From positions 1 through 45,828 of the forward strand of contig RDOA01000027.1 of assembly GCA_011364925.1 (NCBI GenBank): a DNA stretch of 45,828 nucleotides, read 5' to 3'. Source of the DNA: Promethearchaeota archaeon (lineage in GTDB: Archaea; Asgardarchaeota; Lokiarchaeia; Sigyniarchaeales; SOKP01). The notes beneath the pieces were generated by a model. The model was not told the origin of the DNA. It searched no databases and saw nothing but the letters and a program-made list of their open reading frames with translations. Position numbers and translations under genes: made by a program. Shown in pieces: positions 33,883 to 35,947 of the stretch; the first letter of the stretch is position 1, and the number at the start of each line of letters is the position of its first letter.

Positions 33883-35947
33883 ATGTCTGAGGATAAGAAT
33901 AATTCTTACGATGCCGATGACATCCAAGTACTAAAGGGCCTGGACGGCGTAAACTAATTTATAATTCATGAATAGTAGCCAAAGGCGCAGGCCTGCTATG
34001 TATATTGGGGATCAAGGCAAAAAAGGGCTCCATCATTTAATTTATGAAGTTCTGGATAATGCCGTTGATGAAGCAATTGGTGGATTTGCCAATGAAATCA
34101 AGGTTACTCTTTTTAAGGACAATTCTGTACAAATTTACGATAATGGACGGGGGATACCTATTGATACACATCCAGAATTTAACAAACCAGCCCTTGAAGT
34201 AATCATGGAGCATTTACATTCTGGAGGTAAATTCGATAACAAGAGTTATAAAATTTCTGGGGGACTACATGGTGTTGGACTTTCCGTTGTCAATGCATTA
34301 ACAGAATGGATGGATGTAGAAATTTGCAGAGATGGGTTGTTGTATAAACAAAGATTCTCTAGAGGGAAAAAAGAGACAGAACCAGAAATAACTAAGAGTA
34401 ATAGTAAAGAAACCTACACAAAGATTACATTTTATCCAGATGACGAGATATTTGAATTTGAAAACAATGAGGAGATTTTTAGTCCTTCGTCAATTTCTAG
34501 TAGAATGCGAGAGTTAGCTTTCCTTACTCCTCAAGCTCGATTTGAACTACATAATAAAATCATAGACGAAAAAGAGGAGTTTTATTATGAAGGTGGACTC
34601 AAAGAATTTATTGCGTATTTAAACAAAGATAGACAACCCCTTCATAATGATATTATTTACATAAGTGATTCTGCTGAAGATGAAGATGGTGCCCTTATCT
34701 ATTGTGATTTAGCGATGCAGTATAATACGACTTATCAAACGAATATTCAAACCTACGCTAACACGATTAATACCATAGAGGGAGGCACTCATCTTACGGG
34801 CTTTAAATCGGCTCTTACAAGGACATTCAATTCTTATATTGAAAATTTCATGGATAAAAAGAACAAAGAACATGTTTTATCAGGTCCTGATACAAGGGAA
34901 GGATTATCTGCTGTGCTTTCTATTAAGCTGCCAAATCCACAATTCGAAAGTCAAACGAAAATAAAACTCGGTAATCCTGAAGTTAGGCAAGTTGTAAGTC
35001 AAATTGTCACAGAGAAATTGGCTCAATACTTAGAAGAACACCCTGAGAATGCTAAAAAAATAGTGATGAAAACAATTAACGCTAAATTAGCAAGAGAAGC
35101 CGCCCAAAAAGCACGGTCATTAATTCGTAGAAAATCGATTCTGGATGGTGCTAGAATGCCCGGAAAGCTAGCCGACTGTTCCTCGAATGATCCAAGAGAG
35201 TGTGAAATTTTCATAGTTGAAGGCAATTCTGCAGGTGGATCCGCAAAACAGGGGAGGGATAGAGCTTATCAAGCGATTTTGCCTTTAAGGGGTAAAATTT
35301 TAAATGTAGAAAAAGCACGAATGGATAAAATACTGCAAAATAATGAAATCCAATCAATTATTAAAGCCTTGGGAGTAGGAATTCAAGAATTCTACGATGT
35401 TAACGGTGATGAAAATGGTAATGGAGAGGAAGAAAATGCTGATGATGCCGAAGACCTAGAATCTGAATTTGATTTAACCAAGCTGAGATACCATAAAACG
35501 GTTATTATGTGCGATAGTGACATAGATGGGCACCACATCGAAACTCTTCTATTAACGTTTTTCTTTCGATACATGCGGCCATTAATTGATGAGGGTCATT
35601 TGTATCTTGCAGTTCCACCCCTATATAAAGTTTCGTATAAAAAAGATAAATTTTATGTCCTTTCAGATAAAGAGAAAGAAGAACAAATTAAAGAACTGAA
35701 GGAAAAGTATAAATTAAAAAATACTGATACAATTAAGATTCAGCGGTACAAAGGATTGGGTGAGATGAACCCCGATGAACTATACCAAACTACGATGAAT
35801 CGAGAAACTAGAACCTTAAAGAAGGTAACATATGAAGATTATATCGAAAATGATTTAATCTTTACAAAATTGATGGGAAGAGAGGTATTATCTCGTAAAA
35901 AGTATATATTCTCCAATTTTGATAAGGCAACAGAATTGGATATTTAA
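33883..35947 (+). CDS. gyrB: DNA gyrase subunit B, split by a 31-nt intron: join(33883..33951,33983..35947), 677 aa
   Basis: Exon 1 [23 protein letters not shown] joins RRRPAMYIG; EVLDNAVDE, GGLHGVG, PLRGKILN, QRYKGLGEM. Confidence 0.93.
33952..33982 (+). other. Putative BHB intron in gyrB (31 nt)
   Basis: In-frame TAA plus frameshift; bulges UA|A and AA|A, central GGCG/AGCC (one mismatch), exon stem GGCCUG/CAGGCC. Confidence 0.82.

Follow-up and report, generated by a model that had tools for sequence, protein, structure and literature searches.

A predicted bulge-helix-bulge intron in the gyrB pre-mRNA of a family of Lokiarchaeota

Introduction

Bulge-helix-bulge (BHB) introns are known from archaeal tRNA and rRNA genes, and heavily interrupted tRNA genes have been reported from some Asgard lineages, in papers that describe introns in tRNA genes only (PMC11291895; bioRxiv 10.64898/2026.10.13.758758). 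The described example within a protein gene is the intron of the cbf5 pre-mRNA of Crenarchaeota (Watanabe et al. 2002; Yokobori et al. 2009, PMC2738675), which, according to a 2020 study, was the only BHB intron reported in archaeal mRNA besides a case in the 5' untranslated region (UTR) in Haloferax; the 5' UTR intron of HVO_1309 is found in Haloferax volcanii (PMC7714728). Here we analyse a stretch of 45,828 nucleotides (nt) of a Promethearchaeota archaeon (assembly GCA_011364925.1, contig RDOA01000027.1, positions 1 to 45,828), referred to below as the window, in which 31 nt at 33952-33982 interrupt gyrB, the gene for the GyrB subunit of gyrase. We consider it highly probable that these 31 nt are an archaeal BHB intron in the gyrB pre-mRNA, whose cleavage and ligation we infer from the comparison of related genomes.

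The gyrB and cbf5 introns have several features in common. Both interrupt a functionally essential motif, so that removal is required; both have a patchy distribution with lineage-specific precise losses, repeated losses having been proposed for cbf5 too; and both are missed or misannotated by gene callers. However, the cbf5 intron lies at the codon of a catalytic residue in Desulfurococcales and Sulfolobales, whereas the present one lies in Lokiarchaeota, an Asgard group, follows the first 69 nt of a gene that is of bacterial origin, varies between 30 and 53 nt from species to species, and is accompanied by another interrupted protein gene in the same genome. The gyrB intron is thus neither homologous to that of cbf5 nor a member of its family, even though it would work alike, and splicing was demonstrated experimentally for cbf5 whereas for gyrB it is read from sequence comparison.

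With the introns of archaeal tRNA and rRNA genes, the gyrB inserts share the motif of a helix of four base pairs (bp), of which the window's own copy forms three, two 3-nt bulges and flanking helices, as well as the predicted enzymes, an alpha/beta splicing endonuclease (EndA) and the ligase RtcB; the layout of the 30-nt versions, given below, is a further likeness. The gyrB intron differs from them in that the host is an mRNA whose exon side also codes for protein, the pairing being kept by synonymous codon choice. The HVO_1309 transcript is likewise an mRNA substrate of the splicing endonuclease, but there the intron sits in an untranslated leader and no reading frame is interrupted. In eukaryotes, the HAC1 and XBP1 mRNAs undergo unconventional cytoplasmic splicing by Ire1 and a tRNA ligase or RtcB, and the XBP1 intron is 26 nt long. 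They too have a short mRNA intron that is removed without the spliceosome, by cuts in small stem-loops and a tRNA-type ligase, with a change of frame on which the choice of protein depends; but Ire1 is another nuclease and recognizes another motif, and the parallel is a functional analogy only.

Published reports of BHB introns in Asgard protein genes were not found, in a search that covered few subscription journals, so that their absence is unproven. On this footing, gyrB would join cbf5 as the second family of archaeal protein genes, and no more than the second, to contain a BHB intron.

An insert splits the conserved N-terminal motif of gyrB

The window belongs to a 3.9-Mb metagenome-assembled draft genome of 112 contigs (G000), rated 100% complete with 4.2% contamination and having a GC content of 33%. 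Its gyrB gene is composed of the following parts:

33883-33951, plus strand: gyrB exon 1, 23 codons from the ATG at 33883, encoding the GyrB N-terminal arm
33952-33982, plus strand: gyrB insert, the predicted intron, 31 nt, AACUAAUUUAUAAUUCAUGAAUAGUAGCCAA, with TAA at 33955-33957 in the exon-1 frame and the ATG of the open reading frame (ORF) track at 33968-33970
33983-35947, plus strand: gyrB exon 2, beginning RRRPAMYIG, 654 amino acids plus the stop at 35945-35947, in frame +1 relative to exon 1

The frame of exon 1 ends in AAC followed by TAA (33955-33957), leaving 24 residues before the stop, and deletion of 33952-33982 brings the two exons into one frame that reads GLDGV-RRRPAMYIG, as in uninterrupted orthologues. 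This is the arrangement that the first-pass annotation had proposed, with exon 1 running into AAC-TAA and the motif restored once the 31 nt are taken out, and both the sequence itself and the orthologues confirm it. The ATG at 33968, with which the ORF track begins gyrB, does lie within the insert, as had also been stated.

On exon 2, Pfam recognizes the domains HATPase_c, DNA_gyraseB, Toprim and DNA_gyraseB_C, and the NCBIfam models PRK05644 (860 bits) and TIGR01059 are matched only from profile positions 25 and 16, respectively. By this comparison, exon 2 begins after the first 15-24 profile positions, and exon 1 supplies those. Alignments of an uninterrupted orthologue to solved GyrB/ParE N-terminal domain chains begin at its residues 7-10 and at residues 2-5 of the chains; because the start of the orthologue thus aligns to the start of those domains, exon 1 corresponds to the N-terminal arm. 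In bacterial GyrB this arm holds the Tyr that touches the ATP bound by the partner subunit.

The insert recurs at one codon boundary in three genera

The 5' region of gyrB was inspected in about 112 of 135 species genomes of the family and in other families of the same order. An insert was found in 23 genomes, from three genera of one Lokiarchaeota family, and in each it directly follows the Val codon and directly precedes the first Arg codon in GV-R(K/R)RPAMYIG:

Genus g1 (that of the window): 6 genomes with insert; 31, 33 and 53 nt
Genus g22: 12 genomes with insert; 52 or 53 nt
Genus g21: 5 genomes with insert; 30 nt

About 90 of the inspected family members do not carry it, and gyrB is likewise uninterrupted at the site in the order's other families, among whose genomes is a single contig of 4.4 Mb. 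A survey of presence and absence had been suggested from the sequence alone, together with the idea that the intron was gained after gyrase had been acquired; its presence in three genera of a single family, set against its absence from the order's other families, fits that idea.

All 23 inserts differ in sequence, and every one of them brings an in-frame stop 1-4 codons past exon 1. Their length classes are 30, 31, 33, 52 and 53 nt, three of which are given as multiples of three. From this recurrence, diversity of sequence, presence of stops and the frame-keeping lengths it follows that the insert is not an assembly error, a frameshift or a private mutation. An assembly or sequencing artefact might be suspected in the window, which comes from a 112-contig metagenome-assembled draft with some contamination, but assemblies made independently, in different studies, each have their own version of the insert at this one site, and the carriers include a single-contig genome (G085) and a 793-kb contig; we attach almost no probability to it.

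Other candidates were considered and set aside. A programmed frameshift was rejected in view of the three length classes given as frame-keeping, and an intein because the insert carries stop codons. Within 33700-34200, Rfam returned no match at expectation values (E) up to 1, and with it a group I or group II self-splicing intron or another curated RNA family was dropped. At 31 nt, the insert is also far too short for a ribozyme intron.

Both exons are constrained as coding sequence

Over the last 16 codons of exon 1, the 23 intron-bearing genes differ at synonymous sites by a proportion (pS) of 0.60 and at nonsynonymous sites (pN) by 0.086, a ratio of 0.14. For the RxRPA codons that stand between the insert and the Met of MYIG, 21 DNA versions give a pN/pS of 0.25. 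Exon 1 and the RxRPA codons are therefore under purifying selection. An in-frame start is present within the insert in only 3 of the 23 genes, and in 12 of the 23 a stop stands directly 5' of exon 2, which suggests that both exons are translated as one protein.

These observations bear directly on the possibility that gyrB is expressed in two pieces without splicing, that is, as an exon-1 peptide and a shortened GyrB that starts either from the ATG at 33968 (MNSSQRRR) or from the MYIG Met, with an arm that is dispensable or provided in trans. The window's own gene does have the in-frame ATG at 33968, and the Met of PAMYIG is present in all versions. Yet 20 of the 23 genes have no in-frame start in the insert, and the five RxRPA codons lie upstream of the Met and are nonetheless constrained; because starts are few, stops precede exon 2 and RxRPA is kept, neither a start at 33968 nor two separate polypeptides can account for the data. 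The doubt that the first-pass annotation had cast on a MNSSQRRR start is borne out by the same counts. The arm, moreover, is the part that contributes the ATP-contacting Tyr in bacterial GyrB, and two pieces would leave unexplained the covarying BHB fold and the exon-exon complementarity described below. We regard expression in two pieces as very unlikely.

Purifying selection on exon 1 also speaks against a pseudogene, or a neutral small mobile element that inactivates gyrB. Such an explanation would agree with the in-frame stop two codons into the insert and with the finding of no gyrB match in some genomes of the family. The insert persists through speciation in three genera, however; exon 2 is a complete GyrB by its PRK05644 score, gyrA is intact, and no second copy of gyrB was found in G000 with the query used, which gave one match in total. 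We consider a pseudogene or an inactivating element extremely unlikely. The claims that gyrA and the rest of gyrB are intact hold by Pfam and NCBIfam, and that the intron must be removed for full-length GyrB to be made is backed by the comparative evidence.

A bulge-helix-bulge fold is shared and covaries

The window's own copy is predicted to fold with the following elements, which are present in its minimum-free-energy (MFE) fold where so indicated:

33936-33942, plus strand: outer exon-exon helix h, 5' strand GGGCCUG, paired with 33988-33994; in the MFE fold
33988-33994, plus strand: outer exon-exon helix h, 3' strand CAGGCCU, within the Arg-Pro codons; in the MFE fold and in alignment A1
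33946-33949, plus strand: central helix H, 5' strand GGCG, end of the Gly-Val codons, paired with 33977-33980
33977-33980, plus strand: central helix H, 3' strand AGCC, three of four pairs, with a G33949-A33977 mismatch
33950-33952, plus strand: 5' three-nt bulge UA/A, predicted cut 33951/33952; unpaired in the MFE fold
33981-33983, plus strand: 3' bulge AA/A, predicted cut 33982/33983, within a small internal loop rather than a clean 3-nt bulge
33953-33976, plus strand: inner intron hairpin h', ACU-A-AUUUAU, loop AAUUC, AUGAAU-AGU; in the MFE fold

Beyond the 3' bulge, C33945:G33984 closes that bulge and is followed by an A-G mismatch, the pair G33943:C33986, a bulged G33987 and the 7-bp helix h, and h' has four contiguous pairs. 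The three stems that had been drawn by eye (GGGCCUG/CAGGCCU; GGCG/AGCC with its G-A mismatch; ACU+AUUUAU/AUGAAU+AGU) are thus all present, and they appear in the MFE fold as well.

Across genomes, the junction was set by protein homology to uninterrupted orthologues and not by structure, and the rule for a canonical motif was taken from a tRNA-intron census (four central pairs, and next to them a helix, h or h', that has two pairs or more). All four central pairs form in 20 of the 23 inserts, GGCG or GGUG pairing with CGCC, CGCU, CGUU or CGUC; the 3' strand has one further variant, CGAC. The 5' bulge is UA/A, UA/U, UU/U or UU/A in all 23, and the cut rule fits every version: the bulge triplets of the UA/A and AA/A types are left unpaired, and the intron helix begins right after the 5' triplet. 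By class, 16 of the 23 are canonical (15 HBh' and one hBHBh'), three, including the window's, are relaxed in that three out of the four pairs form, and the remaining four have a mismatch following the first h' pair. When the boundaries were slid by 1-12 nt, none of 552 placements was called canonical, and shuffled sequences gave 0.5%.

Alignment A1, of 14 sequences, has 88.8% of its cells paired, against 31-48% in controls with slid partners. Six pairs are altered on both sides, and the covariation score is 0.30, compared with 0.04-0.12 for slid partners. Pairing reaches 96% in the central helix and 85% in the outer helix h (columns 11-17/85-91), and the first three pairs of h' covary between genomes, from AU to GC, CG to UA and UA to CG. 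Applied blind to the 53-nt class, RNAalifold recovers four elements: the central helix, the 5' bulge of 3 nt, an intron helix (P1) of 5 bp, in which pair 31:70 is CG in 7 sequences and UA in 6, and a GC hairpin, to which the long form owes its extra 22-23 nt. The 30-nt versions follow a layout of 1 nt, a 9-bp arm, a 5-nt loop, a 9-bp arm, 4 nt and 2 nt. In most versions, the outer helix and the core are separated by unpaired bases, three nt of the 5' strand and four nt past the 3' triplet, which places the 3' cut site in a small internal loop. Two-subunit endonucleases are reported to tolerate relaxed features of this kind (PMC5829648).

The exons take part in the pairing. The outer helix joins the Gly-Leu to the Arg-Pro codons, and its variable positions are synonymous third positions, which covary at 14:88 of alignment A1 (CG 6, GC 4, UA 3). 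The mean free energy of the exon-exon duplex is -13.3 kcal/mol in genes with the intron and -6.0 kcal/mol in those without it (Mann-Whitney p = 8.5e-8, for genomes that are not independent). The Gly-Val codons are GGCGTA in 12 of the 14 intron-bearing genes of a first sample and in 2 of 37 intron-less genes.

Translational recoding would be a different way to pass the insert, either by ribosome bypass, as in T4 gene 60 or the mitochondrial byps, or by stop readthrough. Bypass elements are also short, stop-bearing inserts in conserved coding sequence, and the size range of 30-53 nt, the stop just past the take-off site and the local hairpin all resemble them. But bypass requires matching take-off and landing triplets, and these are absent in all 23 gyrB versions: take-off would be at GUA or GUU, and the triplet before exon 2 is CAA, UAA, UAC, UAG, UAU or CAG, so that 0 of 23 match. 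Hopping, moreover, would not select a 4-bp helix, two 3-nt bulges at the exact cuts or pairing between the exons. Readthrough would add 10-17 residues into the most conserved motif, and in two of the three 33-nt versions (G009, G023) three stops would have to be passed in frame. We judge recoding of either kind to be highly improbable.

Splicing enzymes and tRNA genes

The genome of the window encodes two EndA paralogues of 200 and 205 residues (PF01974, 100 and 70 bits; TIGR00324), which, when aligned with the single-chain enzyme that arose by duplication, correspond one to its catalytic and one to its structural half. This points to an EndA of the two-subunit alpha/beta type, as found in alpha/beta heterotetramers. 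RtcB is also encoded (560 bits).

ARAGORN reports just 23 tRNA genes for G000 and places an intron in 13 of these; many tRNA genes are probably interrupted at positions that the program cannot handle. The low count and the introns fit the published finding that some Asgard lineages have heavily interrupted tRNA genes.

How firmly the intron can be read

The reading of the insert as a BHB intron is supported by its recurrence at one codon boundary, the covarying fold, the selection seen on either exon and the enzymes that the genome encodes. Several results weigh against it. In G000, the central helix has only three of four pairs and the 3' cut site lies in an internal loop, which makes this copy a member of the relaxed class, and relaxed motifs often arise by chance. 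The fold energy of the G000 sequence is unexceptional (z = -0.67), and the full core appears in just 10 of the 23 single-sequence MFE folds. The genomes are related, so that statistics across them overstate significance. Metagenome contigs contain no exact match to the 34 nt across the spliced junction. Nor did scanning the genome for structure alone turn up an excess of BHB motifs.

As the energy of the single fold is unremarkable, the case beyond chance rests on the 22 further independent insert versions at the same codon boundary. The scans themselves have limited reach. A permissive motif scan gave 163 matches on one strand of the window alone; a search for ORFs rescued by removal of a motif, in phase against an out-of-phase control, gave a null ratio of 0.5 at every threshold, with a 60-codon flank rule that would have left out gyrB itself; and matrices in which the gap between helix and hairpin was varied showed no clear peak at the BHB geometry. 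Scans of structure alone cannot tell a few tens of true introns from the background at 33% GC, and they gave no usable count.

A covariance model of the short gyrB introns (R1) matches in G000 only the gyrB intron itself, at E 1e-6, with 150 of 2127 first-look candidates scored; as far as this model reaches, the other introns of the genome would not be close sequence copies of it. Outside gyrB, R1 has one weak match, at G055:C100:24712-24748 on the minus strand (L092; E 0.005), an AT-rich hairpin in an open frame that is probably a chance hit.

Predicted mechanism and history

In the transcript, GGCG at the end of exon 1 would pair with AGCC, the last bases but two of the intron. The resulting 4-bp helix would be flanked by the 5' bulge UA/A, closed by the AU-rich intron hairpin, and on the 3' strand by the bulge or loop AA/A, closed by the exon-exon helix of the Gly-Leu and Arg-Pro codons. 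The tRNA-splicing endonuclease, of the alpha/beta type that is known for its broad substrate tolerance, would cut after the second nucleotide of each bulge, and RtcB would ligate the exons to GGC GUA/AGG CGC, which reads GLDGV-RRRPAMYIG and would yield full-length GyrB with its N-terminal arm. Unspliced mRNA would give a 24-residue peptide only. The motif would have to fold in competition with the translation of exon 1, and splicing could in this way set the level of GyrB.

History was read from a quick GyrB tree, which calls for a minimum of 8-10 changes in the intron; genes of the 30-nt class form a monophyletic group in it, whereas those of the other length classes are interleaved with intron-less genes. 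There was probably one gain in the Lokiarchaeota family, after which lengths changed (30 to 53 nt, a GC hairpin being added) and the intron was precisely lost several times; a single gain is suggested by the common site, the common 5' and 3' ends and the common loop motif (CAUAAUUCAUG and variants). Exchange of alleles by recombination may be a further part of this history.

One intron-less gyrB (L014, G015:C1) keeps GGCGTA and an exon-exon helix with 7 of 7 pairs at -12.4 kcal/mol. It nests in a clade whose relatives hold the 33-nt intron, and it looks like a recent precise loss.

A second interrupted gene and other features of the locus

About 5 kb from gyrB, a gene for an MglA-like small GTPase (40442-41174, minus strand) contains four inserts, of 30, 31, 29 and 31 nt. 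Four other genomes of the genus (G008, G016, G012 and G015) have it as an uninterrupted orthologue of 204-206 codons. Insert 1 (41071-41042) has a layout of 1 nt, a 9-bp arm, a 5-nt loop, a 9-bp arm, 4 nt and 2 nt, with the central helix AUAA/UUAU. The central pairs are complete in three of the four inserts (1, 2 and 3), at placements consistent with the protein, and insert 4 has only three of four at a placement derived by hand. The insert in gyrB thus appears not to be a lone oddity, this being a second interrupted protein gene in G000. Two further genomes, G005 and G018, show short open frames over the C-terminal exon that was searched (122 amino acids), and their GTPase genes may also be interrupted.

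The remaining features around the two genes are these:

33848-33862, plus strand: conserved element TTTACCTTTACAAAA, about 20 nt 5' of the exon-1 ATG
35988-38450, plus strand: gyrA, intact, immediately 3' of gyrB, with Pfam DNA_topoisoIV and six DNA_gyraseA_C blades
41347-42723, minus strand: ORF of 458 residues, directly upstream of the interrupted GTPase gene

The element TTTACCTTTACAAAA precedes the exon-1 ATG in intron-bearing orthologues as it does in those that have no intron, and it is possibly the promoter element of gyrB, in which case the leader would be very short. The 458-residue ORF carries the LAGLIDADG-like motifs WLGFLSADGSL and LLGFYDGDGTY, by which it would be a free-standing homing-endonuclease-like gene. 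In the window, GyrA (35988-38450) reads HPHGDAAVYN and GyrB (33983-35947) reads EGNSAGGSA; the E. coli counterparts are HPHGDSAVYD and EGDSAGGSA, at positions known as quinolone-resistance sites.

Discussion

If the reading proposed here is correct, the second archaeal case of a BHB intron within a protein gene sits in an essential gene of replication and DNA topology, and in the archaeal group closest to eukaryotes. The natural series of presence and absence over about 110 genomes, together with a further interrupted gene nearby, makes several questions approachable: how protein-spliced introns enter and leave coding sequence, how RNA structure constrains codon choice, and whether mRNA splicing by tRNA-type enzymes predates eukaryotes as a regular step of expression. 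There is also a practical side. Gene callers truncate or split such genes, as they do with gyrB, called from an ATG inside the intron, and this causes systematic errors in Asgard proteomes and in matrices of gene presence and absence.

A wider picture, to which we give a slightly better than even chance, is that of a routine mRNA-splicing layer in this Lokiarchaeota family, in which dozens of BHB micro-introns of 29-53 nt lie in conserved motifs of unrelated protein genes, up to four of them in a 204-codon GTPase gene, are gained and precisely lost between species, and are cut by the alpha/beta EndA, with RtcB, that processes tRNA. If this is true, close relatives of eukaryotes already express many of their proteins only after enzymatic splicing of the mRNA, and splicing may act as a control point at which translation and folding of the motif compete.

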